Shown here one piece after another: positions 10,756-27,254 of a stretch of DNA of 64,000 nucleotides (its first letter is position 1; each line of letters begins with the position of its first letter). Location of the stretch: assembly GCA_963737155.1 (NCBI GenBank), contig CAVTRN010000001.1:896001-960000 (forward strand), read 5' to 3'. This DNA is from Nitrospirota bacterium. GTDB taxonomy: Bacteria > Nitrospirota > UBA9217. The translations under genes were made by a program, and so were the position numbers. The notes under the pieces are model-generated. The model was given only the letters and a program-made list of their open reading frames with translations. It searched no databases and was not told the DNA's origin.

Positions 10756-10771
10756 TGGCATCACTGTTGCA
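10756..10771 (+). promoter_or_regulatory. Sigma54 (-24/-12) promoter
   Basis: TGGCATCACTGTTGCA matches TGGCA-N6-TTGCA with the exact GG-N10-GC spacing, immediately before the ATG at 10787. Confidence 0.8.
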
Positions 10772-11119: not shown

Positions 11120-11148
11120 GTCATTCACTTGAAACGAAGGGAGATGCT

Positions 11149-12177: not shown

Positions 12178-12308
12178 CTTAAACGGTGCAAAAGGAGGTG
12201 AGGCGTTCGGTTAACACAAAAGGAGGTTAGTCAATGGGGATTATTGAGGTGTTGAAAAAACTGTTTTCCCGGGCACAACGTGCAACGGGCAAAGGGGAGG
12301 TAACAAAC

Positions 12309-12752
12309 ATGGCAGACAAGAAAATGACGTTGGAAGAAGTGAACGAGTACATGAAAAAGCAGTGTGGGTTCGTGCCACGCATGTTCCAGATCATCAACAC
12401 CGTTACACCGGAACCGGGCAGGACCTTTGCCGATTTTTACGCCAGCATCTTTGGCGATGGCGCCTTGTCCCGCAAGGTGAAAGAGCTGATGTTCATGTCT
12501 GGTGGCGTTGCTTACTGCTCGCCGCGCTGCATTATCCACGTGATCCCTGCGATCAATGCTGGTGCGACCACGGGCGAAATTTTCGAGGCCGCATCGGTTG
12601 GCATGATCCTCGCCGGTTTTGTGCCAGGTGGTCCCGGGATTCCCTACGCCTTTGAATACGCGCTGAAGTGCCTCGATATAGAAGCGAAGTTCCGCAAAGG
12701 CGAGAAGTGGGAGTACCTGCCGCAGCCGAAGTTCGATCATGGTGTGTTCTAA
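12309..12752 (+). CDS. Carboxymuconolactone decarboxylase/AhpD-family protein
   Basis: 'GFVPRMF', 'DGALSRKVKELM', 'YCSPRCIIH', 'AINAGATTGEIFEA'; SD GGGGAGG. The alternative start at 12234 also has an SD. Confidence 0.82.
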   Translation: MADKKMTLEEVNEYMKKQCGFVPRMFQIINTVTPEPGRTFADFYASIFGDGALSRKVKELMFMSGGVAYCSPRCIIHVIPAINAGATTGEIFEAASVGMILAGFVPGGPGIPYAFEYALKCLDIEAKFRKGEKWEYLPQPKFDHGVF

Positions 12753-12796: not shown

Positions 12797-12977
12797 GGAC
12801 TTATTATTTATCACGCACAGAAACAAATAAAAAAAGCCATTTATCGCGAAGACGCAAAGAGCTCTAAGAACTTCTGAAATAATATTTAAGAATACTGCGT
12901 GTCTTGGTAGTCCAATTCGGTTTTGACTTTATATGACATTGTCAGAACTGCACTGGTTAAAGAAAAGAGGAGCGAGC

Positions 12978-13925
12978 ATGTTCCGATTAAGCAAAGAACA
13001 AAAAGTATTCACCATGGCTGGCATAAGGGTCGGTGGACAGCCGGCCGAAAACCCCCCTCTCCTGATCGCCTCGATGTTCCATAACAAGGATCGCATCGTG
13101 ACCGACCGGAAGGGGAACTTCGATCGCCAGAAGGCTGCGGACCTCATCAAAACGCAGGAGCAGCTTTCGGCTTCCACCGGCATTCCGTCCATGGTTGCCA
13201 TGGTGGCGAACACGCCAGAGGAAGCGAAGATTTACATCGATTTTTACCGCGAAACGACAGCCATGCCTTTTGGCATCGACATGTGGGTCGCGGAAAAAAG
13301 GGCACAGGCCACCGAATACGTGGCTAAGCTCGGTCTTCAGGACAAGTTTCTCTACAACAGCATTACTCCCTGGGACAAGGACATCAAGGGCCAGGTCCAA
13401 AAGCTCAAGGATCTCGGCATCAAGCACGTTGTAGTCCAGGCATTCGATGATGCCGATCAGTCGCCCGTGGGCCGCCTCAAGTCTCTCGAGAAGATGCTTT
13501 CCCAGGGCGCAGATGGCTTCGACACCGTTATTGTCGATACGTCGGTTATGAACCTGCCGGCCACGTCGTTCTCCCTCGTTGCAAACCGCATGATCAAGGA
13601 GAAGTTCGGCCTTCCCTGCGGCGGCGCCTATTCCAACGGTACGCACATGTGGAAGGAAGCGAAGACCCTGTGGAGTCTCGATGGATTCAAGGCCATGGAC
13701 GCCGTTATTCAGGGAATGGCTTCGGTGATGTGGAGCGACTTCAACTTCTACGGCCCCATCGTCACGGCGCCGCGTATCTTCCCTGCCGTGGCCGCAGCGC
13801 ATATTCTGCTGAGCACACTGGTCTACGATGAAACGCAGAAATTTTCGGACACGGCAAATTTACCGATTAAACAATATTTCGGCGATTTTATCAGTAAGCT
13901 GACGACAGGGGGCACGAGGAAATAA
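12978..13925 (+). CDS. mtrH: MtrH/CmuB-family methyl-pterin:corrinoid methyltransferase
   Basis: N-terminus 'MFRLSKEQKVFTMAGIRVGGQPAENPPLLIASMFH..IVTDRKGNFDRQKA' typical of MtrH; 'LYNSI', 'IKEKFGLPCG', 'FYGPI'. No other mtr subunits are present. Confidence 0.88.
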   Translation: MFRLSKEQKVFTMAGIRVGGQPAENPPLLIASMFHNKDRIVTDRKGNFDRQKAADLIKTQEQLSASTGIPSMVAMVANTPEEAKIYIDFYRETTAMPFGIDMWVAEKRAQATEYVAKLGLQDKFLYNSITPWDKDIKGQVQKLKDLGIKHVVVQAFDDADQSPVGRLKSLEKMLSQGADGFDTVIVDTSVMNLPATSFSLVANRMIKEKFGLPCGGAYSNGTHMWKEAKTLWSLDGFKAMDAVIQGMASVMWSDFNFYGPIVTAPRIFPAVAAAHILLSTLVYDETQKFSDTANLPIKQYFGDFISKLTTGGTRK

Positions 13926-14059: not shown

Positions 14060-15091
14060 ATGACAACGAGTATGACTGCACGAGAACGGGTTCTGAAGCT
14101 CTTTGCCGGCGAAGACGTTGACCGGCCGCCGTGCTTCAGTGGCATGGGAAACGTGACCACCGAGGGCCTGAAAGCGCTGAATCAGAAATTTGCGGCCACG
14201 CATCTGGACGCCAAGATGATGGCTGCCGCGGCAGCCTCGACCTATCGGCTCTTCGGGTTCGAGTGCGGCGTGGCCCCCTTTGACCTCTGCATCGAGGCCG
14301 AGGCCCTTGGCTGCGAGATAAATGTGTACGCTCATTCCGAGGACCTGCTGTATCCCACGATCAAGAAAAAGCTGATCCACAACGAGGCCGAGATGGAGAT
14401 TGCCATCCCTTCAAACCTTACCGGGCGCGGAAGGGTGCCGCTCATGCTTGATGTGATCGGGCTCATGAAGAAGGACATCGGCAGCGAGGCCGCAGTCGGG
14501 TCCTACGTACTCGGCCCCTTTACCCTGGCAGGCCAGGTCATGGAGCTGAATGATCTTCTGAAGCTCTCCTTCAAGAAGCCGGACAAGATTGGCAGGCTGC
14601 TCGACCAGCTTTCGGATGTGATTATCCAGGTCGCAGGACAGTACGAAAAGGCAGGCGTCGACTATATCACGGTGCGGGAGATGGGCGCGACTTCTGATGT
14701 TCTCTCCCCGCGGGTGTTCAAGAGCCTGATTCTTCCCTATCTCAGGAAGATTTTCGAGAAAATAACTGTCCCGAGCGTGCTCCATATCTGCGGCAAGACG
14801 AACGACATCGTTCCTTTCATGGCCGAAAGCGGAGCAAAAGCAATCAGCGTGGACCAGAAGAACGACGTGGCTGAGACAAGGAAGAAGCTCGGCCCCAGAG
14901 CGCTCGTGTTCGGCAATTACGACCCCTACAATGTGCTGGTCGCGGGAACGCCTGAGCTGGTGCGTCAGACCATGAGGAAATGCATGGACGACGGCGTAAG
15001 CGCGGTATGGCCCGGTTGCGATATCTGGCCCACGGTCCCGGCGGAAAATTTCAAGATAATGATGGACGAAGTCAGAAATTACAGGAGGTAA
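14060..15091 (+). CDS. MtaA/CmuA-family (UroD-fold) methyltransferase, copy 2
   Basis: 'MTARERVLKLFAGEDVDRPP', 'PFDLCIEAEALGC', 'GRGRVP', 'GPFTLAG', LHICG and WPGCD; strong SD AAGGAGG. Confidence 0.88.
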   Translation: MTTSMTARERVLKLFAGEDVDRPPCFSGMGNVTTEGLKALNQKFAATHLDAKMMAAAAASTYRLFGFECGVAPFDLCIEAEALGCEINVYAHSEDLLYPTIKKKLIHNEAEMEIAIPSNLTGRGRVPLMLDVIGLMKKDIGSEAAVGSYVLGPFTLAGQVMELNDLLKLSFKKPDKIGRLLDQLSDVIIQVAGQYEKAGVDYITVREMGATSDVLSPRVFKSLILPYLRKIFEKITVPSVLHICGKTNDIVPFMAESGAKAISVDQKNDVAETRKKLGPRALVFGNYDPYNVLVAGTPELVRQTMRKCMDDGVSAVWPGCDIWPTVPAENFKIMMDEVRNYRR

Positions 15092-15095: not shown

Positions 15096-15788
15096 ATGGC
15101 AACGGAAGAGAAAAAGAAAGAACTCTTGGAAAAGCTCCGAAACGCCGTGATCCAGTATGATGAGGACACAGCCAAAGAAGCGGCCAATGAAGCGCTCAGC
15201 ACGGGCATGAATGCAAATGACGCCATCTTTAACGGACTCGTGAGCGGGATGGTCGAGGTGGGCCGCATGTTCGAGGCACAGGAGTACTTCGTGCCGGAAC
15301 TGCTCATGTGCGCCGATGCGCTCTACGCCGGCCTCGACATCCTGAAACCCCACGTGACGCAGCTCGACCTCGGGGTCAAGGGATCGGTGGTGATCGGGAC
15401 CGTCGAAGGCGATGTGCACGATATCGGCAAGAACATTGTCAAGATGATGTTCGACGTGGCCGGCTTCACGGTTTATGACCTGGGTCGCGACGTGCCCCTT
15501 GACAAATTCGTGCAGGAGCAGCTCCGGACTGATTCAGACCTGGTCTGCCTCTCGGCCATGATGACCACAACCATGACGGGCATGAAGAAAGTGATTGACG
15601 ATCTCCGAACCAGGAACCCGAATGTCAAGATAATGATCGGCGGTGCTCCCGTGTCTCAGGACGTGGCCGATAAATACGGCGCCGATGGCTACGCAAAGGA
15701 TGCGACGAACGCGCTCAAGGACGCAATCAACATGATCAGTTCACTCAAGAAAATGAAGGACGAGGCTGAAGCACGGAAAGCGAAATGA
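15096..15788 (+). CDS. Methyltransferase cognate corrinoid (B12-binding) protein
   Basis: Cap domain 'YFVPELLMCADA'; DxHxxG motif 'GDVHDIGKNIV'; 'LSAMMTTTM', 'IGGAP', 'GADGY'. Confidence 0.95.
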   Translation: MATEEKKKELLEKLRNAVIQYDEDTAKEAANEALSTGMNANDAIFNGLVSGMVEVGRMFEAQEYFVPELLMCADALYAGLDILKPHVTQLDLGVKGSVVIGTVEGDVHDIGKNIVKMMFDVAGFTVYDLGRDVPLDKFVQEQLRTDSDLVCLSAMMTTTMTGMKKVIDDLRTRNPNVKIMIGGAPVSQDVADKYGADGYAKDATNALKDAINMISSLKKMKDEAEARKAK

Positions 15789-16477
15789 ACCGGCTAATCA
15801 GGAAAGACCTGCTCGACCACGGCGCCGCAGTCGTCGGCTTTGCCGGGCTGCGGGGATTTTTGAGCGGAGAAATCGCCCATCTGGCGACTGCCGTGTCCAT
15901 CGGTGTGGATCGGAAGCTGAACGAGGACACACTTAGCCTGCTTATGAAGCTCCAAAAACGGGCGGTGCGGTTTTTGAAGTCCCGGGGCTATCGTACTCTG
16001 GCGATCCCGCCGGACTCGGACCGGGGGAAAGGGACTTTCATTTCAAAGCTCTACTCCCTGTTCAACCATAAGATGGCTGCTACCTCCGCGGGCCTGGGGT
16101 GGATCGGGAAGAATGGCCTCCTGATCAGCACGGAGTACGGACCGCGGCTTTCGCTGGTTACGGTGCTGACCGACGCCTCGCTCGATCCGGATGTTCCCAT
16201 GGAGTACAGTCTGTGCGGCGACTGCACGCTTTGCATGCAGTACTGCCCGTCGCAGGCGATCACGGGATTGGAATGGTCCCGGTCCTCGCCCTTTGCTGAA
16301 CTGGTGAAAACGGGCGCCTGCAGGAGCCACAAGGCGGCCAAGCGGGCAACAGACGGGAAACCTAACTGCGGGCTGTGCATCAATATCTGCCCCTATGGAA
16401 GACCGGTTGAAACCGAACAGGGAGTCAAGCTTAAGAAAAAACAGGCATCCGACAAGACACACAGCGGGCAGCAGTGA
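15785..16477 (+). CDS. QueG/reductive-dehalogenase-like double [4Fe-4S] protein
   Basis: 'HKMAATSAGLGWIGKNGLLI..EYGPRL', CGDCTLCMQYCP and CGLCINICP; ATGA overlap with the corrinoid gene; short (230 aa), no TAT signal. Confidence 0.8.
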   Translation: MNRLIRKDLLDHGAAVVGFAGLRGFLSGEIAHLATAVSIGVDRKLNEDTLSLLMKLQKRAVRFLKSRGYRTLAIPPDSDRGKGTFISKLYSLFNHKMAATSAGLGWIGKNGLLISTEYGPRLSLVTVLTDASLDPDVPMEYSLCGDCTLCMQYCPSQAITGLEWSRSSPFAELVKTGACRSHKAAKRATDGKPNCGLCINICPYGRPVETEQGVKLKKKQASDKTHSGQQ

Positions 16478-16501: not shown

Positions 16502-18484
16502 ATGACCAGAAATTATAAAGTGATTTTCCAACCTGCGGGTAGGCGCGGCGAAATAGAAGAGGGTAGGACTATTCTGCAGGCCGCGCAATCCCTGGGCGTT
16601 GATATCGAGGCGCTCTGCGGCAACAAAAAGGTCTGTGGCAAATGCAAGGTCCGCATCGAAGAGGGTTACTTCGAGAAAGACAACATTGATTCGGGAATGG
16701 CGCATATTTTTCCCGCCGAGCCATCGGCTGATGAGCTGAAACACATTAAACCGCAGGACGGGCCAGGGATCAGGCTGGCGTGCCAGTGCGAGATCCGGGG
16801 TGACGTCAAGGTCTTTGTTCCAGAACGCTCACGGGCCGGAAAGCAGGTCGTGCGCAAGGCGGCCAAGGAGCTCACGATCGCGATCGACCCTGCGATAAGG
16901 AAATATAATGTCGACCTCAAAGCGCCGACGCTTCATGATATGACCACCGGAGATTGGGAGCGCGTGCTCACATTTCTAGAGGAGGACTACGGCCTCAAGG
17001 GGCTGACCTTCGATTATCTTGTGTTGAAGGACATCCAGGACGTCCTGCGCAAAGGCGACTGGAAGGCCACGGTTACGGTATGGATGGACAGGGAGATCAT
17101 CAAGATCGAGCCCGGCTTCGTTGAAGCGATCTACGGTCTTGCTGTCGATGTGGGTACAACGACCTGTGTCGGCTATCTCACCGACTTGACCACGGGGCAG
17201 GTGGTGAATACCGAATCGATGATGAACCCCCAGGTGCCTTACGGCGAGGACGTCATGTCGCGGATTACCTACGCCATGAGCAATCGAGACGGACTCGAGA
17301 CCATGCAGAAAGCGATTATCCAGGGCCTGAACGAGATTATCGAGCGTGTCGTTGTCGATGTTCATAAAGACGGCCCGGAACCCGGGCGGGTAATCGACGA
17401 CCTAACGATCGTTTTCAACACGGCCATGCATCATATATTCCTCGGTCTGAACCCCGAGTACATAGGGCGCTCGCCCTTCATACCCGCAGTCCAGAGTTCG
17501 CTCGACATCAAAGCGCGCGACCTCGGGCTCAGAATTAACCCTGCATCCTACATTTATGTGCTTCCCATTGAGGCGGGTTTCGTAGGTGCCGACAACGTAG
17601 GTGTGCTGATCGCCGAGGAACCCTATAATCAGGACGAGAACGTGCTGATTATAGACATCGGCACGAACGGCGAGTTGCTGCTCGGCAACCGGAACAGAGT
17701 CTGCTCCACATCTTGTGCCACTGGCCCAGCCTTCGAAGGCGCTCAGATCAAATTCGGCATGCGCGCCGCGCCGGGGGCTATCGAGACCGTTGAGATCGAT
17801 CCGCTGACTAGGGAGCCGCGCTATAAAGTGATAGGCAAGGCGGATTGGCATACCCATATTCAGCAGGTAAACGCCAAGGGCATCTGCGGGTCAGGCATCA
17901 TCCAAGTCGTGGCCGAGATGTTCAAGGCCGGCATTATCGATAAATCCGGTCGGTTCGTGATGGACCTGGGTACACCGAGGGTCAGGAAAGATGCTGAGGG
18001 CAAACCGGAATACGTGCTTGCTTGGGCTTCGGAAACCTCGATCAGCCAGGAAATAACCGTCACCCAGGGGGATGTGAGAGCGCTGCAGCTGGCGAAGGGG
18101 GCACTCTACACCGGGGCCAAACTCATGATGAAGCGGCTGGGAATCACCCAGCTCGACCGCGTCATCCTGGCCGGCGCCTTTGGTAGCCACATCGACCGGG
18201 AGGCCTCACTTACGCTTGGCATGTTCCCCGATTGCCCAATCGACAAGATATATGCCGTGGGCAACGCGGCCGGAGACGGTTCGCGTATGGCGCTACTGAA
18301 CAGGAGCAAACGGCGCGAGGCAAGCGAACGCGCGCGATGGGTTGAGTTCGTTGAGATCGCCACGGACCCGTTGTTCGAGCGGGAATTCATGATGGCTATG
18401 CATATTCCGCACATGAAGGACAAGTTCCCGAACCTGAAGGAACTGCTTGATAAGTCGAAGAGCCCCGTGGATATCAAGGCATAG
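16502..18484 (+). CDS. ATP-dependent reductive activator of corrinoid proteins (RACE/RACo, ASKHA fold)
   Basis: N-terminal 2Fe-2S motif (CGNKKVCGKC...RLAC); DVGTTT, DIGTNGE, ATGPAFEG, GICGSG, LAGAFG, GNAAG. Confidence 0.93.
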   Translation: MTRNYKVIFQPAGRRGEIEEGRTILQAAQSLGVDIEALCGNKKVCGKCKVRIEEGYFEKDNIDSGMAHIFPAEPSADELKHIKPQDGPGIRLACQCEIRGDVKVFVPERSRAGKQVVRKAAKELTIAIDPAIRKYNVDLKAPTLHDMTTGDWERVLTFLEEDYGLKGLTFDYLVLKDIQDVLRKGDWKATVTVWMDREIIKIEPGFVEAIYGLAVDVGTTTCVGYLTDLTTGQVVNTESMMNPQVPYGEDVMSRITYAMSNRDGLETMQKAIIQGLNEIIERVVVDVHKDGPEPGRVIDDLTIVFNTAMHHIFLGLNPEYIGRSPFIPAVQSSLDIKARDLGLRINPASYIYVLPIEAGFVGADNVGVLIAEEPYNQDENVLIIDIGTNGELLLGNRNRVCSTSCATGPAFEGAQIKFGMRAAPGAIETVEIDPLTREPRYKVIGKADWHTHIQQVNAKGICGSGIIQVVAEMFKAGIIDKSGRFVMDLGTPRVRKDAEGKPEYVLAWASETSISQEITVTQGDVRALQLAKGALYTGAKLMMKRLGITQLDRVILAGAFGSHIDREASLTLGMFPDCPIDKIYAVGNAAGDGSRMALLNRSKRREASERARWVEFVEIATDPLFEREFMMAMHIPHMKDKFPNLKELLDKSKSPVDIKA

Positions 18485-18514: not shown

Positions 18515-18829
18515 ATGACAAAAGTCGTTGTACATTCGGGAGCGTGTGGTTTTATTGTTACAATACATGCGGTGAAGAGCACAGGAGGAACAATAACGCT
18601 TCGTATCGATACGGACTGCGAGATGGTAAAAAAGATGCTCGAGGACATCTCCGTTCTTGACCGGTTCGCGGCGCTCACCGCCTTCCAGCACAATCCCGTG
18701 TATCGCTCTGCAGCAAAACACCTGAAGCATGTTGCCTGCACCGCGCCAGCGGGAATCATAAAGGCGATCGAGGTCGAGGCTGCTCTAAACGTGCCAAAAG
18801 ACGCAGATATCTGCTTCGTGAAACCATAG
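18515..18829 (+). CDS. Small Cys/His protein (DUF6951-like)
   Basis: 'SGACGF', 'TDCEMV', 'HVAC..PAGIIKAIEVEA'; co-oriented within the cluster. Family assigned from recall. Confidence 0.65.
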   Translation: MTKVVVHSGACGFIVTIHAVKSTGGTITLRIDTDCEMVKKMLEDISVLDRFAALTAFQHNPVYRSAAKHLKHVACTAPAGIIKAIEVEAALNVPKDADICFVKP

Positions 18830-18960: not shown

Positions 18961-19656
18961 ATGGATGTCATGGGGAAAATACTTATCACCGCAGCGTACT
19001 TCGTATTCGCTGTGTTCTGGATACGGTTTTTTACTCACGCGTTGATATGGTGGAATGCCGCATCGCGATTCCGGGGAACCGCCGGGCAGTCGATCCGGCC
19101 CTCCATGAAAGCATACGCGCTCACGGCAATGGACATGGTCTGTTTCGGGAAACTTCTTATGGTGAACCCGGCGCTCTGGCTGGGCGAGTGGGTATTCCAT
19201 GTCTCCTTTGTCCTGGTGTTGTTGAGGCATTTGCGGTTTTTTTTAAATCCTGCTCCTGAGTGCATATGGTGGGTCCAGACACCAGGCCTGATAGCCGGCT
19301 ATATCCTGCCGGTGTCGCTAGTCTACATCATGCTCGTCCGGTTTTTTTCAGGAAGGGAACGCTATACTTCACCGGCAAATATGTTTCTCCTCGGCCTCGT
19401 GCTTGTCATTAGCTCGCTCGGCGTTGCAATGCACCTGCTGTTCAAACCGAACCTTGTGGAGGTGAAGCTGTTCGTCCTGGGCATCCTGAGCTTCAGGCCT
19501 GTTGCAGCGCCTGAGAGCTTTCTGTTCGCGATTCATTTCTGCCTGGTCCTGGTCCTGATTCCCTTTCTCCCCACTCATCTTTTCTTTGCTCCCTTCGTGA
19601 TGATGGAGGCAAGAAAGCGGGAGCAGGCATTGCGTCTGGTAATGCATGAAAAATAA
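18961..19656 (+). CDS. NarI/DsrM/HdrE-family di-haem cytochrome b membrane subunit
   Basis: About 5 TM helices; His pairs in 'WVFHVSFVLVLLRHLRFF' and 'AIHFCLVLVLIPFLPTHLF'; overlaps the hdrD start. Confidence 0.82.
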   Translation: MDVMGKILITAAYFVFAVFWIRFFTHALIWWNAASRFRGTAGQSIRPSMKAYALTAMDMVCFGKLLMVNPALWLGEWVFHVSFVLVLLRHLRFFLNPAPECIWWVQTPGLIAGYILPVSLVYIMLVRFFSGRERYTSPANMFLLGLVLVISSLGVAMHLLFKPNLVEVKLFVLGILSFRPVAAPESFLFAIHFCLVLVLIPFLPTHLFFAPFVMMEARKREQALRLVMHEK

Positions 19657-20863
19657 GCGTTCGTTCACAGAAGAGCTTCTCCCCCAACAGATCCTCGAAA
19701 TCGGTGCCTGTACTCGGTGCGGCGAGTGCCTCAAGCACTGCCCTGTTCAGGACGTGACGAGCAATCCCTCGATCTCCCCGCCTGAGAAAATCCGCATGTT
19801 TCGTGAATTTATCCGCTCTACCGATGGACTCAAGTCAACGCTCTTCGGGTCCGGGAACGTGGATCGGAAGCTGCTGGATGACTTTACCCGGGCGGTATAT
19901 GAATGTACTACGTGCGGTGCTTGCGGCCAGAATTGCCCGGTCGGCATCTTTACGCAACGTCTCTGGCCCATGCTTAGGAAAGAGATGGTCAAGCGGGGGC
20001 TTGGACCAATTGGCGCCCAGGCGAACATACCGAAGGCGATCATGAGCAGCGGCAATCCCTATGAGAAGCCATCGTCTGAACGATACCATCCGTGGTTCCC
20101 GAGATATGTGAAAATAGCGGACCGGTCGGAAATAGCCTATTATGCCGGTTGCACTGGTGCGTATGAAGCGCAGCCCATGGTTCGTGGTGATATCCTTGTG
20201 CTTGATGCGGTCGGAGCGCCCTTTACCATGCTTCCCCCGGAGGAAGAGGTCTGCTGCGGATTTCCCCTCTTCATTACCGGACAGCACGACCAGCTCACGG
20301 ACCTCATTATCCGCTTGGTGAAGGGATATGAGGCGCGGGGAGTGAAGATCTTGGTCTGCTCCTGCCCCTGCTGCGTGAATATCATGACCAGGGACTGGCC
20401 CCTGTTCTATGGCAAGTCGCTGCCCTTTAAGATACGGCACATTACGCAATATGTCTCTGATGCGATCAAGGATGGCAGACTGCGTGTGAAAAAGGAGCTG
20501 CGCGAAGCAGTGATCTACCATGACCCGTGCTACCTCTCGCGCGGTGTAGGAGTAATCGAGGAGCCGCGAAACGTGCTGAGGAGCATCCCGGGGCTTACTC
20601 TGCTGGAGTTCGAACACCACGGCGTCAACTCCCGTTGCTGCGGCTCGGGAGGGGCGGCAAGAAAGGTCTACAATGATAACGCGATCGCCATGGGCAGGCT
20701 AACGATCGACGAAGCGGTGGCAAAGAAGGCTGACCGGCTGATCCTAAGCTGCCCGGCCTGCTATGCCAAGGTAAACGAAGCCATGCAGGGACACAAGAAC
20801 CAGATCCGGATCACGGATATCATGGAACTGGTGAGCATCATGATTGAAGGTGACAGATCATGA
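19646..20863 (+). CDS. hdrD: HdrD-type heterodisulfide reductase catalytic subunit (2x[4Fe-4S] + 2 CCG domains)
   Basis: CTRCGECLKHCP and CTTCGACGQNCP; GCT..CCG..CPCC and HDPC..CCG..CPAC; 405 aa. Segments such as 'MVKRGLGPIGAQ' and 'DWPLFYGKSLPF' track Methanosarcina HdrD as I recall it. Confidence 0.8.
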   Translation: MKNKRSFTEELLPQQILEIGACTRCGECLKHCPVQDVTSNPSISPPEKIRMFREFIRSTDGLKSTLFGSGNVDRKLLDDFTRAVYECTTCGACGQNCPVGIFTQRLWPMLRKEMVKRGLGPIGAQANIPKAIMSSGNPYEKPSSERYHPWFPRYVKIADRSEIAYYAGCTGAYEAQPMVRGDILVLDAVGAPFTMLPPEEEVCCGFPLFITGQHDQLTDLIIRLVKGYEARGVKILVCSCPCCVNIMTRDWPLFYGKSLPFKIRHITQYVSDAIKDGRLRVKKELREAVIYHDPCYLSRGVGVIEEPRNVLRSIPGLTLLEFEHHGVNSRCCGSGGAARKVYNDNAIAMGRLTIDEAVAKKADRLILSCPACYAKVNEAMQGHKNQIRITDIMELVSIMIEGDRS

Positions 20864-22119
20864 GTCATTTTTCTATTCGTTGTAGGAAGTGCGACAAAAC
20901 CCTTGAGAACACGTACTGTGTCTTTTGCGAACATTGCGCTGACGCGCTCTTGGTGACGGATTATCACCAGGCTCATTTCTCAGAACGCGCGGCCGGCGGC
21001 GCATGGCGATTCAACTGGCTGCCGGTGCACGAACCGCAGGCGGCTCAGCCCGGTCCCGTGGTGTACCGGTCCCAGGGTCTTGCCTGGAGTCTTGGTCTGG
21101 ATAATCTGTTTATTGCCTTTAACGGCTACTGGCCCGAACGCGGAGCGTTGCTCGAGACTTGTACATTCAAGGAATTCGAGGCGGCCGTCGTGCTCCAGAA
21201 TGCCCGTGAGAACGGTGTAGAAGGCCTGGTTGTCGCTTCTGCTGGAAACACGGCCCGGGCCTTCGCCCATCTTTCTGCGGTCACGGGTTTTCCGGTTATC
21301 ATTCTCGTGCCGCGAATGTGTCTCATGGAAATGTGGTACCTTGAAAGCAAAGCCACGATAGCTACGCTCGCGTTAGGTGACGGTGATTACGCCGATTCCA
21401 TCGATGTTGCCAAGCGGGTCGCCGCAACAATCGGGTTCCCCTTCGAGGGCGGCGTTAAGAACATAGCCAAGCGCGACGGTCTCGGCATCGTGATGCTCGA
21501 GGCGGTCTCGACGATTGGGAGACTACCTGACCACTATGTCCAGGCCGTGGGAAGCGGCACAGGTGCAATCGGCACCTGGGAAATGGCGGAACGTTTTGTC
21601 AAAGATGGACGTTACGGCTCCCGACTGCCTCTCATGCACCTCGGCCAGAATCTGCCATTTGCACCGATGCTTCATGCCTGGGAGCAGGGCAGCAGGACAC
21701 TGTTTCCCGACGACTTGAAGCCGGAGTTGATCTCTCGGATCACGACGCGGGTCCTTTCGACCCGCTATCCCGCATACTCGGTCATCGGCGGTGTTTACGA
21801 CATGCTCTCCGCAACCCGCGGAATCATGTATGGCATTGAAAATGACGAAGTCTATGCCGGCATGGAAATGTTCCAGAAGGCCGAAGGCATCGACATCGTT
21901 CCCGCCTCGGGCGTTGCGGTCGCCGTGCTCCGGGAGGCCCTGCATAGGAGGGCCATTAAAAGCAGCGATACTGTTCTCCTGAACATTACGGGCGGCGGAG
22001 AAGCGAGACTGCTGCAGGACAGAAAGACCCATGCTGTTGTGCCGAAGTACATATCCAGGAACATCACCGAGAGAGAGGTAGAGGATCTGCTGTGCCACAA
22101 CCTGAAGAAAAACTCATAG
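20860..22119 (+). CDS. Cysteate synthase (PLP-dependent, threonine-synthase fold; Methanosarcina MA3297 type)
   Basis: 'LFIAFNGYWPERGA..TCTFKEFEA' (PLP Lys), 'ASAGNTARAF', 'EGGVKNIAKRDG', 'PDHYVQAVGSGTG', 'QNLPFAPM'; directly upstream of comDE. Confidence 0.9.
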   Translation: MSHFSIRCRKCDKTLENTYCVFCEHCADALLVTDYHQAHFSERAAGGAWRFNWLPVHEPQAAQPGPVVYRSQGLAWSLGLDNLFIAFNGYWPERGALLETCTFKEFEAAVVLQNARENGVEGLVVASAGNTARAFAHLSAVTGFPVIILVPRMCLMEMWYLESKATIATLALGDGDYADSIDVAKRVAATIGFPFEGGVKNIAKRDGLGIVMLEAVSTIGRLPDHYVQAVGSGTGAIGTWEMAERFVKDGRYGSRLPLMHLGQNLPFAPMLHAWEQGSRTLFPDDLKPELISRITTRVLSTRYPAYSVIGGVYDMLSATRGIMYGIENDEVYAGMEMFQKAEGIDIVPASGVAVAVLREALHRRAIKSSDTVLLNITGGGEARLLQDRKTHAVVPKYISRNITEREVEDLLCHNLKKNS

Positions 22120-23234
22120 ACTTGCTCAGGAAGAACGGAATTGATTTTACCGCATCGCTTCCCTGCGAGAAGATTAAAACCCTTCTTGACCTGGTGGATC
22201 GGTCCTTCCCGCATGTCCCCCTCACGCGCGAGGAAGAAGGCGTCGGCATATGCGCCGGCGCTGCGCTCGCTGGCAAAAAACCGGCCATCTTCATCCAGAG
22301 TTCCGGCATCGGGAACATGATCAATGCCCTGCTGTCGCTCACGGCATTCTATGAACTGCCTCTTGCGCTATTTATCAGCAGACGGGGCATCTACCAGGAG
22401 AAAATCGAGGCTCAGTTCCCCATGGGCCAGCGGCTTCCGTCAATCCTGGATGGCGCAGGGATCGGCTATTCGGAAATCAACACTGTTGATGACCTCGCCG
22501 TTGTTGACGTTGAGTTGCCGGAGGTCTACCGAAAGAACGTGATTCATGCTTTCCTGCTAAATCCGGCAGTGTGGGAAAACTCGGATTGCCGATCACAGAC
22601 TGCGAATTGCGGATTTAAGCAAAAAAAAACCGGTGTTCAGAATGCATCACCAATCGTGCCGCATGCATTGCGGCCAATACTCACACGGTATGAGATTTTG
22701 AAAACCATTGCTCCCTATCTTGACGGCAAGGCAGTTGTGTGCAATCTCGGATGGCCCTCCAAGGAACTGTATGCAATCAAGGACCAGCCATCGAATTTCT
22801 ACATGCTCGGTAGCATGGGCATGGCCACGCCTATCGGCTTGGGCATCTCCCTCACGTCATCCAAAGAGGTGGTCGTGCTCGATGGCGATGGAAGCCTGCT
22901 CATGAATCCCGGAACACTGGCGACCGCTGCCGCTGCCGCACCCCGGAACCTGATGATCATCGCCATCGACAACGGAGCTTATGGCTCGACAGGAAACCAG
23001 CCGACACTGACGGCATCCTGCACGGACCTGGAGCAGGTGGCGAGGGGATTCGGATTCAGGGAGACGGTGAAAGCAGCGTCAGAAAAGGAATTTGTAGAGG
23101 TTATGAAACAGCATCTGCAGGGTGTTGCCTTTATCCATGCCCTGGCAATACCGGGAAACAAGGATGTGCCGAACATTCGACTCCATCATCTTGAGATCAA
23201 AAAGCAGGTGCAGGATTTTTTGAACAAACCATAA
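22092..23234 (+). CDS. comDE: Fused sulfopyruvate decarboxylase ComD-ComE (TPP-dependent)
   Basis: Alpha part 'SLPC..LTREEEGVGICAGA..QSSGIGNMINAL..EKIEAQFPMG'; beta part 'NLGWPSKEL..NFYMLGSMG..GDGSLLMN..DNGAYGSTGNQPT'; GTG start, 28-nt overlap with cysteate synthase. Confidence 0.9.
   Translation: MPQPEEKLIDLLRKNGIDFTASLPCEKIKTLLDLVDRSFPHVPLTREEEGVGICAGAALAGKKPAIFIQSSGIGNMINALLSLTAFYELPLALFISRRGIYQEKIEAQFPMGQRLPSILDGAGIGYSEINTVDDLAVVDVELPEVYRKNVIHAFLLNPAVWENSDCRSQTANCGFKQKKTGVQNASPIVPHALRPILTRYEILKTIAPYLDGKAVVCNLGWPSKELYAIKDQPSNFYMLGSMGMATPIGLGISLTSSKEVVVLDGDGSLLMNPGTLATAAAAAPRNLMIIAIDNGAYGSTGNQPTLTASCTDLEQVARGFGFRETVKAASEKEFVEVMKQHLQGVAFIHALAIPGNKDVPNIRLHHLEIKKQVQDFLNKP
22582..22616 (+). 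repeat. Five degenerate 7-mer repeats (CGGATTG consensus) in the ComD-ComE linker
   Basis: CGGATTG CCGATCA CAGACTG CGAATTG CGGATTT, followed by an A9 tract at 22621-22629. Confidence 0.5.
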
Positions 23235-23247
23235 CGATGGCAGAGAC

Positions 23248-23847
23248 TCATAACCGCCCCGAAGTTCCGTATTCCCGGACATAAACCTTGATAGCCCTGA
23301 GGATTATCCAGTCAAGGGTGACGTTGTTCTCCTTCGCGATGCTGATCAAGGCATCGATCGTATCTTTGTCAATGACGGGTATGTCTTGCGGTTTAGCCGT
23401 CTCCGCAGCCGCTGTTTCCAATTCCGCTGCTTCTAATAATTCCTCTCCTGCTTCGGGATTCCGTTTCAGATGTTCCCGCCGCAGCATGTCCGTCAATTCC
23501 TGCACGTTGCCGCCCTGAATGGCGCTTCGAACATCCCCGGGAACATCCCCTGCCGTGATCGCTTGCTCAGGTATCGCGCCTTCCAGCGGCTGCCGCAAAT
23601 TTAACTCCGGCGGTGCTCCCTGAGACATGCCGGTCATTCCAAGCATCATGGTCACCAAGTTCCTGGCATATTCATTATCAGGCATTTCCTGCTTGAGCAA
23701 CTCATCAAGTTTGCCTTCCACCATGGCCGCTGCCATGCGGTCTGCTGTCAGGGATTCACGGTTCTCGCTCTTCTCGGACGACTTTTTCCAGCCGAATGCG
23801 GTGGTCGGCGGCGTAGGTAGAGGTTTGTTCTTATCTGTTTTTTTCAT
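23248..23847 (-). CDS. Hypothetical protein, possible C-terminal ribbon-helix-helix-like segment
   Basis: 199-aa ORF with SD GAGGGG; C-terminus 'IDKDTIDALISIAKENNVTLDWIILRAIKVYV'. Confidence 0.65.
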   Translation of the reverse strand: MKKTDKNKPLPTPPTTAFGWKKSSEKSENRESLTADRMAAAMVEGKLDELLKQEMPDNEYARNLVTMMLGMTGMSQGAPPELNLRQPLEGAIPEQAITAGDVPGDVRSAIQGGNVQELTDMLRREHLKRNPEAGEELLEAAELETAAAETAKPQDIPVIDKDTIDALISIAKENNVTLDWIILRAIKVYVREYGTSGRL

Positions 23848-23954: not shown

Positions 23955-24899
23955 TTACCCCGTTATTGCGATCCCATCGTGATAATGCTCTTTTTCGGGA
24001 TGAATGTGGTCGATAATCTCCCGTGAGAAGATCCGATCCGGCCCCACAGCGGAGCCGATATATCCTCTTTTTTCTAAAACCGGCACGAACTTCATGGTCG
24101 AAGCGATATATTCCCCCGTCAATTGGGCGCAGTATTTTGGCGAAACCGCAAGCGTATCTCGTACAAATTCCTGATCGATGATGCCGACGAAGTCCGCGAT
24201 CGCGAGCGCGGCATCTGACGGATGCTGTCTTATAAACGCGGTGGCCTCCTCATGAAGGAGAAGGAACCGTTCCACGGTCTTCTTTTCTGCCTGCAGGAAT
24301 CTCCGGTCAGCCACGATACCGTAGCTCGGGTTGGCAGGCCAAAGCAACGACGGGGGGTACAATATCTTACCACCGGCAAAGCGCTTGATGGCGACGGCGA
24401 GCGCGGGAGTACCGAATGCTGCCGAGACCTCATCATGAACAACGGCTTCGGTTACCAGATCAGCCCATGGATAATTGACGATCGTGACCTCCGAACCCAG
24501 ATCATATCGCTCAATACAGTCCTTCAGGATGACGTCATGGATCGATCCTTTTCCGGGCACGCCGATTCTTCGTCCCCGGAACTGCTGCAGGACCGCGCGC
24601 AAATCCGCCCCCTCGGCATGACCCAGCCATTGAGACTTACCGGCCATGACCGTTCCTTCCATGTGGCCGCCTGCCAAGCAGATTACGTCGATACCCTGTG
24701 CAATACCGATAATCGCCGGAGGAAGCCCGATATAGGCAAGATCAAGCTCGCGGTTCTGAAAAGCCTGCATGATGGCAGGACCGGTACCCAGCAGCTTCCA
24801 CTCCACCTCTGCCTCAAGGCGGGCATTGGTGTTTCCCTTTGCCATCAACAGAATCGCTGTATGATAAAAGGTCGACAGATGACCTATCCTGATCTTCAC
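23955..24899 (-). CDS. SsuA/NMT1/THI5-fold substrate-binding-like protein lacking a signal peptide
   Basis: GTG start with SD AGGAG; 'KIRIGHLSTFYH', 'GPAIMQAF..ELDLAYIGLPP', 'RIGVPGKGSIHDVIL'; no adjacent permease or ATPase gene. Confidence 0.8.
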   Translation of the reverse strand: MKIRIGHLSTFYHTAILLMAKGNTNARLEAEVEWKLLGTGPAIMQAFQNRELDLAYIGLPPAIIGIAQGIDVICLAGGHMEGTVMAGKSQWLGHAEGADLRAVLQQFRGRRIGVPGKGSIHDVILKDCIERYDLGSEVTIVNYPWADLVTEAVVHDEVSAAFGTPALAVAIKRFAGGKILYPPSLLWPANPSYGIVADRRFLQAEKKTVERFLLLHEEATAFIRQHPSDAALAIADFVGIIDQEFVRDTLAVSPKYCAQLTGEYIASTMKFVPVLEKRGYIGSAVGPDRIFSREIIDHIHPEKEHYHDGIAITG

Positions 24900-25096
24900 T
24901 GATGGTGATGCTCCTGCGAGCGAGTCTGAGTCCTGTAACAATATTAATCTTGATCTGCTTCGAAGTCAACAAACTTGCAAAGCCCTCAAATTGCTTTTTT
25001 TGCCGTTTACGGTGCATGTCGGAAACCCGAAGTCTGGCAGCGAACAAACTCCTTTCTAGTTGCCCGTCCTGTTATGCTGTGTTACTATATAATAAC

Positions 25097-27127
25097 ATGA
25101 AAATCGTACTTGACAAGGACAGTTCGGAGGTGCTCAGAACGCTCGACGTGCTGGGCATGCCCGCGTTTATTGTGGATCGACAATGGACTATCCTATCGTG
25201 CAATGACGGAGTGTCTTCTTTTTTTGAATACGACCGGTCAGATATTATCGGCCGCAATATTGAAAAATACATATCTCTCGATACTATCCTCCGGGAGCGC
25301 GAAATAATGGGCACTTCTCCGACTGCCGATGCTGCCCTGGACGGTGAAGCTTCGCCGTCCCTCCGCTCGTTCTGCTTCCGCAGGCGCAGGAGTCCCGTAA
25401 CGTCTCGGATTGCCGTCATTCCAAACAGAAAACACCGGCCCGAAAGGATGATTGTCGTAGTACGTGATACACCGAACCGCGAAAACCCATCCTCGGACAT
25501 TATTTCCGCCATCCAGAGCAACAGCGTTGCTCAGGGAGAACTAATAAGTGAGCTGAGCAGTATTATCAACTCCAGTCTAAGCATTGGGACGATCTTCCGT
25601 ATGGTCGTGTCCGAACTGCGAAAGATCATCGATTACAGCAGGGCAAGTCTCCTGCTGTACAACGAAAAGGACAACAACCTCACGATTTTCGCATTGGACA
25701 CGGAAATGAAGACGGTGATGAAAAAAGGAGTGAAGGCCCCCATTGAAGGCACAAGCGCGGGCTGGGTTGTGCAGAATAACAAACCATGGATCAGCCATGA
25801 TCTCAAGGACACCCTGTTCGCCCTGGACAGGAAGCTCATGGCCGAAGGCATTCGCTCGACGATTAGCATTCCTCTGTTCCACGACCGCATGCTCGGCGTG
25901 TTCAATTTCGACAGCACTGAGCCGTTGCAATATGCCGAAACGGATCTTGATATTCTGCTGCCTGTTGCAAAGCAGATCGCCATTGCCCTCGAGAACGCAC
26001 TCCTCTTTGAGGAGATCTCGAAGGAAAAAAAGGAATGGGAGAGGACCTTTGACGCGATCACTGACATGGTCTGGATCGAGGATGGAAGGCAGCGCGTGAT
26101 CCGCGCTAATCATGCCCTCCTCGCAAGGACTGGCTTCGCAAAGGTAGAGGTAGCTGACAAGCTATGCACCGAGGTCCTCGACAAGGTCGGTATCGCCGCT
26201 ACCAGCGGCTGTCTCTGCTCCGAGATGCTATCCTGCCGGATACCGGCGTTCCGGGAGCTGAAGAGTGGAACAGGCGGCATCTTCCATTTCTGGGTTTACC
26301 CGCTCATCGATGAAGAGGGGCGGCTCTACGCAATCGTCCACTATCTGAAGGATGTAACATCCCAGAAGCGCATTGAGCAGCAGCTGATCCGTACAGACAA
26401 GCTTGCCTCTCTCGGTACGTTGGTGGCCGGCGTGGCACATGAGATCAACAATCCTCTGGGGATCATCGCGGGTTATTCCGAGGCTCTCCTCGACCGCGCG
26501 GGGAACAAGGCCCTGACCGGGGTCTGGGAATTCGAGGATTTCCCCGAATATCTCAAGACCATCCACAGCGAGATTTTCCGCTGCAAGGGGATTCTGAAAA
26601 GCCTGCTCGAGTTTGCCCGTCCATCCGGAGGAACGTTCCGGGAGATCGATATTAACGAGCTGATCAAGGAAGTACTGCTCCTGCTCCAGCACCGCGCTTC
26701 GCGCCTGAAACACTCTCTCGTGCTGAACCTGAATCGGGATGTTCCTAAGATTTACGCGGATGCTGGAAGCCTCCGGCAGCTGTTGATGAACCTTCTGCTC
26801 AATGCTGTCTACTTCACGCCTGAGGGTGGGAGCATCTTCATCAGTACCGAACAGGACGACAGCGTGCAGGAGGCGAGGTTCGAGGGATGCCTAAGCCGGG
26901 TGTGCCTCTCTGTTGCCGATACCGGGGCAGGCATCCCGGCGGATCTTCTGGACAAGGTCTTCGACCCTTTCTTTACCACTAAACCGGTGGGCGAAGGTAC
27001 CGGTCTTGGTCTCACCATCTGCCACCGGATCGTGGAAGAGCATGGCGGCGTTATTGACGTGGAAAGCGAACTCGGCAAAGGCGCGCGATTTATCATAACG
27101 CTGCCGTCGATCTCATGCAGGGAGTGA
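25097..27127 (+). CDS. Cytoplasmic PAS-GAF-PAS sensor histidine kinase (NtrB-like)
   Basis: H-box 'LVAGVAHEINNPL', N-box 'NLLLNA', 'DTGAGI', 'FDPFFTTK', 'GTGLGL'; no TM segment. Start moved to ATG 25097. Confidence 0.92.
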   Translation: MKIVLDKDSSEVLRTLDVLGMPAFIVDRQWTILSCNDGVSSFFEYDRSDIIGRNIEKYISLDTILREREIMGTSPTADAALDGEASPSLRSFCFRRRRSPVTSRIAVIPNRKHRPERMIVVVRDTPNRENPSSDIISAIQSNSVAQGELISELSSIINSSLSIGTIFRMVVSELRKIIDYSRASLLLYNEKDNNLTIFALDTEMKTVMKKGVKAPIEGTSAGWVVQNNKPWISHDLKDTLFALDRKLMAEGIRSTISIPLFHDRMLGVFNFDSTEPLQYAETDLDILLPVAKQIAIALENALLFEEISKEKKEWERTFDAITDMVWIEDGRQRVIRANHALLARTGFAKVEVADKLCTEVLDKVGIAATSGCLCSEMLSCRIPAFRELKSGTGGIFHFWVYPLIDEEGRLYAIVHYLKDVTSQKRIEQQLIRTDKLASLGTLVAGVAHEINNPLGIIAGYSEALLDRAGNKALTGVWEFEDFPEYLKTIHSEIFRCKGILKSLLEFARPSGGTFREIDINELIKEVLLLLQHRASRLKHSLVLNLNRDVPKIYADAGSLRQLLMNLLLNAVYFTPEGGSIFISTEQDDSVQEARFEGCLSRVCLSVADTGAGIPADLLDKVFDPFFTTKPVGEGTGLGLTICHRIVEEHGGVIDVESELGKGARFIITLPSISCRE

Positions 27128-27254
27128 CACCGTGAAACCTTGGGTCAAAGGAGACTTTGAAGTCTCGGGTTTCCCTTGGAGGGAAAGAGGAACTTAGATG
27201 CAGGAATTACGGAGCACGATGAAGCCGCCCGTGTTAAGGGAAAACAAATTGCTT

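Follow-up and report, generated by a model that had tools for sequence, protein, structure and literature searches.

We analyzed a window of 64,000 nucleotides (nt) from a Nitrospirota bacterium (contig CAVTRN010000001.1 of assembly GCA_963737155.1, positions 896,001 to 960,000), in which two overlapping genes on the + strand encode a cytochrome b of 231 amino acids (aa) and an HdrD-like iron–sulfur (Fe-S) protein of 405 aa (Table 1). Our favored reading, to which we assign a probability of about one half, is that this pair forms a quinol-linked thiol/disulfide reductase acting on coenzyme M (CoM) or on a closely related sulfonate thiol derived from sulfoacetaldehyde. A CoM-type disulfide is favored because the pair is coupled without a break to the genes for cysteate synthase and ComDE and to those for CoM-type methyltransferases. 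The cluster, in which the pair occupies the ninth and tenth places in a run of 12 genes on one strand, suggests an undescribed bacterial use of CoM, a cofactor best known from methanogens. We computed sequence motifs, folds, predicted binding, gene coupling, co-occurrence across genomes and the genome background.

The 405-aa protein has the hallmark of HdrD, namely, a catalytic subunit of approximately 400 aa with two CX2CX2CX3CP and two CCG motifs. The CX2CX2CX3CP motifs start at C22 and C87, and both CCG domains are complete (C169-x33-C203C204G-x34/35-C240xxC243 and C295-x35-C331C332G-x35/36-C369xxC372); accordingly, Pfam detected CCG in two stretches, together with Fer4_8. The two CCG motifs contain 10 Cys in total, which is the number described as holding the two non-cubane clusters of HdrB in the available part of bioRxiv 10.64898/2026.08.18.745454. 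We aligned the window protein with its 120 best homologs, all of which are close relatives (at least 80% identity), and found that 20 of its 20 Cys are invariant in 121 of 121 sequences. Two of these, Cys238 and Cys242, lie beyond the canonical CxxC in a Cys-rich stretch that is specific to the family (C238-S-C240-P-C242-C243). An AlphaFold2 model based on an alignment of 89 sequences had a mean pLDDT of 95.3; its best match among solved structures was EtfD of Mycobacterium smegmatis (E 8.9e-20, TMq 0.78), which was also the best sequence match in the PDB (7.3e-28), and other matches were a LutA model and the HdrB chains 5odc_B and 8rwn_B (TMt 0.62–0.67). All curated NCBIfam scores were below the cut-offs (LdhH, 127 against 800; GlpC, 96.6 against 278; the DsrK model NF045796, 96.1 against 400 bits; the TfrB model NF004898, 180.5 against 385 bits, with only profile positions 128–485 covered). 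The original prediction, made from this sequence, had described both the ferredoxin motifs and the two complete CCG domains, as confirmed here, and had contrasted them with DsrK. This contrast holds for the DsrK of the host genome (539 aa, C2:1115954-1117573; C1, which carries the window, and C2 denote the two contigs of that genome), which has a degenerate first CCG motif in the alignment and no Pfam CCG match at E ≤ 1e-5.

A HMMER search of 1.84 billion cluster representatives gave 8380 relatives at E ≤ 0.001, of which 1040 reached E ≤ 1e-30. Apart from the cluster to which the protein itself belongs (79% identity), the nearest full-length clusters were the uncharacterized P0124, P0126, P0127 and P0128 (45, 42, 38 and 38% identity, respectively). 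These four and the window family constituted one clade with an SH-like support of 100 in a FastTree phylogeny of 116 rows (the window protein, 113 representatives and two paralogs from its own genome; fragments, sequences covering <330 query positions, the host's own DsrK and two other paralogs were left out). The label of P0128 is Desulfobaccales, and P0126 is encoded on an archaeal contig (L101) with genes for TiaS, PCNA, an archaeal primase and RNA-polymerase subunits. The names found for 30 clusters that we looked up were Desulfobaccales, Odinarchaeota/Promethearchaeota, Baldrarchaeia, Nitrososphaerales, Thermoplasmata, Thermincola and 'bacterium', and no methanogen name was among them. 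All of these clusters bore the JGI name 'heterodisulfide reductase subunit D', which is not specific. Among 102 representatives scanned with NCBIfam, the matches to TfrB were below the threshold, except for one true TfrB (P0184) and one LdhH-like fusion, and the ESM Atlas placed the protein among generic 'Fe-S oxidoreductase' clusters. The best 120 matches in a word index were all orthologs with at least 80% identity. Judged by its motifs, and not by comparison with the HdrD of Methanosarcina, the protein is classified here as HdrD-type and belongs to a small subfamily of mixed bacterial and archaeal membership.

The 231-aa protein contains four His (H80, H90, H192 and H206) that are invariant across 52 aligned anchors, that is, the window protein and 51 orthologs. 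The accessible text of PMC9478090 describes NarI and HdrE as NarI-family cytochromes b of five helices, in which helices 2 and 5 provide two His each (or His/Met in helix 5), and the His pattern and the NarI fold of the window anchor are those of an HdrE-type partner. Its AlphaFold2 model (pLDDT 87.5) contains long helices and had E. coli NarI chains as the best PDB folds (1q16_C, E 9.6e-4, TM 0.57–0.65). In Pfam, no match was obtained for the window anchor itself, including PF02665 (NarI family); this family matched 13 of the 52 aligned anchors (best, 7.4e-7), and 27 of the 30 nearest ESM Atlas clusters share the PF02665 family set. The only NCBIfam match was to DsrM (NF038037; residues 70–205), at 60.5 bits against a cut-off of 300, and the real DsrM of the host genome (330 aa) scored 531.3 bits in the same model. 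The two proteins are 33% identical over 146 aa (E 8e-15), and their helix-2 motifs (F79-H80-VSFVLV-LLRHLRFF-LN-P in the anchor) align as FHVSFVLVLLRHLRFF in the window and FHWSFLIVLIRHLRFF in the host DsrM. These sequence comparisons indicate that the anchor is related to DsrM and yet is not a DsrM.

Two types of anchor were distinguished among 74 related loci with enough upstream DNA. The window type (type 1) precedes the HdrD-like gene in 66 loci, and either type does so in 71. Type 1 anchors are 225–232 aa long, and DsrM was the only curated match (56–66 bits) in the four that were scanned (the window protein and three orthologs). The five loci L041, L056, L084, L085 and L086 carry instead a second NarI-type cytochrome b of 268–272 aa (type 2), with weak matches only to QmoC, TmcC or NarI; the two types can barely be aligned (E 1e-5, last helix only). 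Type 2 also adjoins the archaeal relative P0126, and of 66 metagenome loci with distant HdrD-like genes, 22 had type 2 as a neighbor and none had the window type (E ≤ 1e-6, ≥40% coverage). Since replacement of the anchor in the Nitrospirota lineage would leave the distribution seen, this pattern fits an anchor swap and lends indirect support to the 'hybrid' enzyme of the original prediction. In five clusters (L046, L054, L064, L070 and L074), a tandem second pair lies between DUF6951 and the main pair and consists of a type 2 cytochrome b and an HdrD-like gene approximately 30% identical to the main one. Two further loci (L134:4800-12612 and L141:4825-11802) encode Tmc/Hmc-like complexes in which a distant HdrD-like protein (approximately 30% identity) is combined with multihaem cytochrome c and cytochrome b; the genes of a complete SsuABC-like transporter and a radical-SAM/GNAT gene come next. 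Owing to these cytochrome c complexes, the two loci were rejected as relatives informative on the pair.

The structure prediction of the 231-aa and 405-aa proteins together gave an ipSAE of 0.76 (median of three runs), compared with 0.00 for the best control; the runs share at least 78% of contacts, and the partner pLDDT was at least 78. The mark applied to ipSAE is attained by 58 of 80 solved complexes and by 2 of 110 mismatched pairs, and it is approximate here, custom alignments having been used. The predicted interface joins residues 16–29 and 96–102 of the Fe-S protein, around the first ferredoxin-type cluster, with residues 204–228 of the cytochrome, that is, the end of helix 5 and the C-terminal tail, next to H206. 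In the model, this geometry is that expected for electron transfer from the cytoplasm-side haem, and the positive result may rest partly on likeness to the solved fused EtfD. The same 11-nt overlap between the two genes was observed in 45 of 67 related loci with the window-type anchor. Together, the overlap and the predicted binding uphold the two-subunit, HdrDE-style membrane complex that had been proposed, and the kinship of the anchor with DsrM, read at that time from an 'FH......LLRHLRFF..P' motif, is substantiated by the identity and curated match described above.

HdrDE (EC 1.8.98.1) is a membrane-bound heterodisulfide reductase of Methanosarcina and other archaea that contain cytochromes, and it reduces CoM-S-S-CoB with methanophenazine as the electron carrier. 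The window pair resembles it as a two-gene unit of a cytochrome b and an Fe-S subunit of approximately 400 aa with two ferredoxin and two CCG motifs, as well as in the co-encoded and predicted binding of the subunits and in the genomic tie to CoM-related genes. A NarI-fold cytochrome of five helices, with two His each in helices 2 and 5, is likewise shared, as far as HdrE is described in the part of PMC9478090 at hand. However, the host is a bacterium lacking MCR, the producer of CoM-S-S-CoB; DsrM is the only model that the anchor matches; a quinone presumably takes the place of methanophenazine as the electron carrier; and the C238-S-C240-P-C242-C243 motif is specific to the window family.

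The strongest link to CoM is provided by the neighboring genes. The start of the cysteate synthase gene overlaps the stop of the HdrD-like gene, and the gene for a fused sulfopyruvate decarboxylase (ComDE) follows; both proteins score above their curated cut-offs, and ComDE is below that for phosphonopyruvate decarboxylase (213.8 vs 312.5). Among 14 control genomes, the cysteate synthase model TIGR03844 was exceeded only in Methanosarcina acetivorans. Upstream, the cluster encodes an MtaA-like protein that exceeds the cut-off of NF004889, the methylcobalamin:CoM methyltransferase subfamily, and a second enzyme of the same URO-D family. His-x-Cys...Cys is the zinc motif of thiol-alkylating enzymes of the MtaA type. 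In the MtaA-like enzyme, H242 and C244 are invariant and C320 is conserved in 98% of 45 sequences, and in the other URO-D enzyme the motif H248-x-C250...C330 is invariant in 43 sequences. The archaeal cysteate:2-oxoglutarate aminotransferase step is performed by a generic aspartate aminotransferase. The link to CoM had been proposed from the pair itself, and with cysteate synthase and ComDE downstream and an MtaA-family enzyme upstream, it has become stronger than could be recognized at that time. URO-D zinc methyltransferases, a corrinoid protein, RACo and an MtrH-family enzyme also occur together in MtaA/MtbA/MtsA systems and in bacteria-like Mto/Mtg systems with MtrH-type enzymes; the window operon differs from these in joining thiol-type (CoM-type) and pterin-type acceptor enzymes in a bacterium.

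We further examined the conservation of this arrangement in 80 related loci (68–90% identity of the HdrD-like protein), counting only those with sufficient flanking DNA. Cysteate synthase lies downstream of the HdrD-like gene in 61 of 70 loci, and DUF6951 precedes the pair in 52 of 63. Near the HdrD-like gene, ComDE was found in 51/61 loci, RACo in 44/54, an MtaA-like gene in 40/45 and an MtrH-like gene in 37/43. In addition, we sampled 151 genomes spread evenly over the phylum, defining an ortholog of the HdrD-like protein by E ≤ 1e-150 and cysteate synthase by a score above its cut-off. The ortholog was present in 17 genomes and cysteate synthase in 16, all of which are among the 17, with the two genes adjacent in 16/16; no cysteate synthase was detected in the 134 genomes without the ortholog. 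At closer range, 13 of 14 other genomes of the same genus had the ortholog, as did 3 of the 10 other genera of this family; in the first sample, none of the 16 genomes from other families had it.

On the basis of these results, we infer the following for the haem and cluster content, the quinone partner, the chemistry at the disulfide, the nature of the thiol and the way in which electrons flow. The two gene products would form a two-subunit membrane complex, in which the five-helix NarI-type cytochrome b would bind two haems through H80/H206 and H90/H192 and would exchange electrons with the quinone pool, quinol being oxidized there. The cytoplasmic 405-aa subunit would dock on the cytoplasmic face of the cytochrome via its first ferredoxin-type cluster, so that electrons could pass from the two haems via two cubane [4Fe-4S] clusters and reach the two non-cubane clusters bound by the CCG motifs. 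There, a two-electron thiol/disulfide reaction, as in HdrB/HdrD, would convert a disulfide to two thiols, and the reverse may also be possible. The substrate would most likely be a CoM disulfide, either the homodisulfide or a mixed one, or that of a closely related sulfonate thiol. Precursors of the thiol would be supplied by the translationally coupled cysteate synthase and ComDE, and the zinc-dependent methyltransferases of the MtaA type, whose genes lie upstream, would use the thiol to take methyl groups from, or give them to, a shared corrinoid protein. The MtrH-type enzyme could link the same corrinoid to a pterin feeding the Wood–Ljungdahl pathway, and methyl groups would thus move between a methylated substrate, the thiol and the pterin.

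Several points weigh against a CoM-linked disulfide reductase. CoM as the product is deduced from the gene content, and the final archaeal CoM synthase is missing: COG1900/PF01837 had no match in the host genome or in any of the 16 sampled genomes with cysteate synthase, although PF01837 was present in 10 other genomes of the phylum sample, and the best score of the MMP16 CoM synthase model TIGR03287 in the host genome was 30.5 bits against a cut-off of 363.95. McrA (PF02249) had no match in this genome, which is rated 100% complete, and without it methyl-CoM would have no known sink other than reverse methyl transfer. The genomes in the co-occurrence sample are related, so that the counts are not independent and constitute a pattern rather than a statistical test. 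The curated scores of both subunits are far below the cut-offs (TfrB, DsrK and DsrM). Moreover, intact CCG motifs are no proof of disulfide chemistry; they are also retained in GlpC, LutA and archaeal SdhE, whose enzymes catalyze no disulfide reduction, and the best whole-length fold is that of EtfD, an electron-transfer enzyme. Finally, copies of the pair (68–74% identity) also occur without methyltransferase or CoM genes. In one of these loci (L079:4904-12086), the pair is accompanied by DsrE-like and DsrH-like genes, a pyridine-nucleotide-disulfide oxidoreductase (Pyr_redox_2), an MMPL transporter and a LolA-like gene, and in another (L086:1738-8957) by a DsrE-family gene, the same oxidoreductase and MMPL and LolA-like genes; L087 has the same spacing of open reading frames (ORFs) as these two, as judged by spacing alone, and L056 has yet other neighbors. 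In a FastTree phylogeny of 84 rows, such copies are scattered among those from the operon, and second copies occur within one metagenome-assembled genome (L056 with L088, and L049 with L083). The pair is a module that is mobile between sulfur-related contexts, and therefore general thiol/disulfide/persulfide chemistry fits better than one narrow substrate.

The likeness to EtfD raises the possibility of a pure electron-transfer module, as in EMO/EtfD, GlpC, LutA and SdhE, which would connect the quinone pool with a redox partner of the methyltransferase system, such as the QueG-like protein, DUF6951 or RACo (corrinoid reactivation), with CCG clusters that only conduct. We regard this explanation as unlikely. 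EMO, the ETF:(methyl)menaquinone oxidoreductase (PDB 9ojn; as characterized in the available part of PMC13083937), shares with the pair the order of a membrane haem domain, two cubane clusters and a CCG domain, and EtfD is the closest solved structure in both sequence and fold. According to the accessible portion of bioRxiv 10.64898/2026.08.18.745454, the non-cubane clusters of EMO serve electron transfer, and a His blocks its CoM site. The position of the pair, directly after the genes for RACo, the QueG-like protein and DUF6951, would also suit such a role. However, EMO is one fused polypeptide with an N-terminal haem-binding membrane domain, in contrast to the two ORFs of the window, and EtfD has an altered cluster and a His in its CxHC, compared with Cys and all 10 CCG Cys retained in the window family. 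More precisely, the window protein reads CPCC where EtfD reads CPHC, and Cys242 takes the place of the His in 28 of 28 family rows; at this position, 61 other HdrD-like sequences show Gly in 35 cases, Ser in 14, Thr in 4, Cys in 3 and other residues in the rest, but never His. Because Cys occupies the place of the site-blocking His, the 405-aa protein is probably not of the EMO type; His is present in a separate, fused EMO-like paralog of the host genome (C1:671275-673122, 615 aa). Furthermore, the pair is most tightly coupled not to RACo but to cysteate synthase and ComDE (an overlap of 4 nt downstream vs a gap of 132 nt upstream), and Pfam scans of the cluster genes revealed no ETF-like partner gene.

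The absence of a known CoM synthase gives rise to another explanation, which we consider slightly less probable than a pure electron-transfer role: the complex might itself carry out the missing last step of CoM synthesis in place of COG1900/MMP16, supplying two to four electrons for the conversion of sulfoacetaldehyde and sulfide, or a carrier persulfide, to the thiol, perhaps through a persulfide or disulfide intermediate. The available text of PMC12068725 states that this step requires two electrons with HS- and four with S0. The fact that the pair is adjacent to cysteate synthase in all 16 genomes without PF01837, and translationally coupled to cysteate synthase and ComDE, speaks for this possibility, as does the presence of the same pair with DsrE/DsrH-like sulfur-carrier genes elsewhere. 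We know of no precedent, however, for a CCG protein performing the reductive thiolation of an aldehyde, and copies of the pair exist without CoM genes. In addition, sulfide and sulfoacetaldehyde also react abiotically under reducing conditions (PMC12068725, in the same part), and a producer of sulfide may need no enzyme. The archaeal type 2 pathway of Methanosarcinales, as outlined there, resembles the window in its adjacent cysteate synthase and fused ComDE, both of which exceed the cut-offs here; it differs in that the window host is a bacterium without MMP16/COG1900 and in that hdrED-like genes and a corrinoid methyltransferase system are part of the same operon in the window.

DsrMK forms the core of DsrMKJOP, a reductase that links menaquinol to the trisulfide of DsrC. 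By analogy, the pair could be a reductase of a carrier-protein disulfide, trisulfide or persulfide in general sulfur trafficking, with only a secondary meaning of the proximity to CoM genes. This is distinctly unlikely in our judgment. The two systems share a cytochrome b followed by an Fe-S subunit with a CCG site, and the relationship of the anchors, including the helix-2 motif FHxSFxxVLxRHLRFF, and the DsrE/DsrH-like and oxidoreductase genes in L079 and L086 point in this direction. Nevertheless, a real dsrMK lies beside dsrAB elsewhere in the genome, with a DsrM of far higher score; the window anchor is 100 aa shorter than that DsrM, and the window pair is not beside dsrAB, dsrC or dsrJOP. 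The Fe-S subunit is also shorter than the host DsrK and has two intact CCG motifs, compared with one in DsrK. Pfam and NCBIfam scans detected no DsrC-, TusA- or DsrE-like gene among the window cluster genes, and the C-terminal Cys of DUF6951 is kept in only 5% of orthologs. It is very improbable that the sulfonate genes serve catabolism or another product (sulfite, isethionate, taurine or sulfoacetate) while the pair balances electrons: ComDE homologs reportedly act in bacterial sulfolactate degradation in Roseovarius nubinhibens, an SsuA-like binding protein adjoins the cluster and the genome respires sulfite (dsrA), but the cysteate synthase is biosynthetic and exceeds its curated model, the route via sulfoacetaldehyde acetyltransferase was rejected for want of any such enzyme above the cut-off in the host genome (TIGR03457, 341.6 vs 676.4), and the thiol-type methyltransferases at the core of the cluster would be left unexplained.

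The features of the cluster and its surroundings are listed in Table 1. Several proteins encoded beside the pair carry highly conserved Cys and His: C95-x3-C99-x2-H102 of the CMD/AhpD-like protein is invariant in 42 sequences, 8 Cys of the QueG-like protein in 52, and C11, C35, H72 and C75 of DUF6951 in 59, the last being likely to form a metal site. The sigma-54-type element is one of only two matches with one mismatch in the window, in which the total number of sigma-54 matches was not above chance (31 vs 30.8). Of 37 related loci, 18 have the pattern TGGYAY-N5-TTGCW in the 700 nt upstream, 16 of them at a distance of 357–427 nt, and the element fits control by the PAS-GAF kinase and the sigma-54 regulator. 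A scan of positions 10200–24000 for sigma-70 promoters and terminators gave nothing above shuffled sequences (6 vs 9.9 and 15 vs 13.2, respectively). No permease or ATPase gene lies between the SsuA-like gene and the adjoining histidine kinase or 199-aa gene; this orphan binding protein is perhaps a sensor for the kinase and regulator.

Table 1. Coordinates (window positions) of the HdrDE-like pair and of the genes and elements around it
Feature	Position	Strand	Evidence or remark
Sigma-54-type -24/-12 element TGGCATCACTGTTGCA	10756..10771	+	345 nt upstream of first cluster gene
URO-D methyltransferase, MtaA/CmuA-like	11116..12177	+	Pfam URO-D 5.5e-60; TIGR01463 180.7, below cut-off 235.4
CMD/AhpD-like protein	12234..12752	+	Pfam CMD 5.3e-6; 75-98% identity to orthologs
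MtrH-family methyl-corrinoid:pterin methyltransferase	12933..13925	+	Pfam MtrH 5.3e-54; NF002142 324.2, cut-off 287
MtaA/CmuA-family methylcobamide:thiol (CoM-type) methyltransferase	14060..15091	+	NF004889 265.1 (cut-off 244); TIGR01463 247.7 (cut-off 235.4)
Corrinoid (B12-binding) protein	15096..15788	+	Pfam B12-binding, B12-binding_2; TIGR02370 205.9, below cut-off 215.3
Small QueG/reductive-dehalogenase-like protein with two 4Fe-4S motifs	15785..16477	+	Pfam Fer4_16; partial TIGR00276, TIGR02486
RACo-type reductive activator of corrinoid proteins (2Fe-2S and ASKHA ATPase)	16502..18484	+	RACo_C_ter 1.6e-94, Raco_middle, RACo_linker, Fer2
DUF6951 protein	18515..18829	+	Pfam DUF6951 3.2e-28
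NarI-fold dihaem-type cytochrome b anchor, type 1, DsrM-related, 231 aa	18961..19656	+	Invariant His, NarI fold, DsrM match; overlaps next gene by 11 nt
HdrD-type iron-sulfur subunit, 405 aa	19646..20863	+	Two cubane-cluster motifs and two CCG (non-cubane cluster) motifs
Cysteate synthase	20860..22119	+	TIGR03844 460.2, cut-off 324.9; start overlaps hdrD-like stop by 4 nt
Fused sulfopyruvate decarboxylase ComDE	22092..23234	+	TIGR03845 185.1 (cut-off 147.95), TIGR03846 229.9 (cut-off 221.5)
Conserved 199-aa protein of no known family, convergent with operon	23248..23847	-	No Pfam/NCBIfam match; ortholog in 28/80 loci
SsuA/NMT1-like sulfonate-type binding protein	23955..24941	-	NMT1_2 3.4e-16; TIGR01728 84.4, below cut-off 163.5
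PAS-GAF-PAS histidine kinase	24902..27127	+	Pfam HATPase_c, GAF_2, HisKA, PAS_9
Sigma-54-dependent response regulator	27198..28589	+	Sigma54_activat 3.4e-67, Response_reg, HTH_8 (Fis-type HTH)

The host is an uncultured Nitrospirota bacterium of the sulfate-reducing type, with a genome of 4.84 Mb in two contigs. Its dsrA, dsrB, dsrM and dsrK genes are grouped on the other contig (C2:1107884-1117573; dsrA 566 bits, above the cut-off), and CdhC/AcsB was found by a profile search of the genome. Records titled 'Nitrospirota bacterium' contain the proteins most similar to the 405-aa subunit (90% and 89% identity), and the lineage labels of the 80 related loci are Nitrospirota (77), Rokubacteria (2) and Betaproteobacteria (1); among the 77, many are Thermodesulfovibrionia/Thermodesulfovibrionales, Candidatus Sulfobium or Dissulfurispiraceae. 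Eight public sequencing runs matched the sequence, with up to 0.38 of the sampled words; all are DNA runs from soil or peat metagenomes, and none is RNA.

The host genome contains a second corrinoid methyltransferase cluster (C2:694035-704799, locus L095), comprising an MtaA paralog (49% identity), another URO-D protein, a corrinoid protein (54%), RACo (56%), CobW-like, CbbQ-like and DUF1638 genes and its own PAS kinase and LuxR-type regulator, without CoM or Hdr genes. Outside the operon, the window includes a third RACo-type activator (38932-40854, +), which is 33% identical to the RACo of the operon, and a CobW-family GTPase (9392-10267, -). Elsewhere in the window, two AcrB-family RND transporters (1027 and 1036 aa) are encoded in tandem after an HlyD-type membrane-fusion protein (1317-9058, +), and there is a polyamine cluster of an Orn/Lys/Arg decarboxylase, a spermidine synthase and an S-adenosylmethionine decarboxylase (34089-37024, -). 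The AcrB-type pumps, the HlyD-type protein and the sigma-54 activator with its Fis-type HTH mark the window as bacterial DNA.

Complexes of the HdrDE type, DsrMK and EMO are known kinds of enzyme; new here is the combination of a DsrM-type anchor with an HdrD-type subunit in a bacterium, wired to CoM precursor genes and to a corrinoid methyltransferase system. CoM is textbook chemistry of methanogens, of methanotrophic and alkanotrophic archaea and of a few aerobic alkene-oxidizing bacteria. Our full-text literature search, the scope of which excluded most subscription journals and supplements, found no paper in which Nitrospirota or Thermodesulfovibrionia are linked to the biosynthesis of CoM, to cysteate synthase or to ComDE. 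In the accessible portions of PMC12740246, PMC11631310 and PMC11264602, CoM is mentioned for archaea only, and the corresponding portion of PMC12068725 gives three known biosynthetic routes to CoM and, for its uses, lists the metabolism of alkanes and alkenes alone.

In Nitrospirota from soil, sediment and groundwater, one conserved operon combines genes for CoM precursors of the archaeal type with those for CoM-type methyltransferases and for an HdrDE-like complex in the membrane. If our reading is right, CoM would extend to anaerobic bacteria with dsrAB, bacterial methyl metabolism would include a quinone-linked thiol/disulfide couple, and the pair would be a natural example of anchor exchange between the Dsr and Hdr families. 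A more far-reaching idea, which we put forward tentatively and which is rather doubtful as a whole, is that anaerobic Nitrospirota bearing dsr genes make CoM by the cysteate route without a known CoM synthase, that the DsrM-anchored HdrD-type complex forms or regenerates the thiol from quinol, and that CoM acts as a methyl carrier or redox thiol in a methylotrophy that is free of MCR and feeds the Wood–Ljungdahl pathway. If true, this would be a fourth biological context for CoM, together with a bacterial heterodisulfide-reductase respiration that arose by swapping a Dsr-type anchor onto an HdrD-type subunit. For organisms without COG1900, the operon also offers a candidate, open to direct testing, for the enzyme that forms or recycles CoM.

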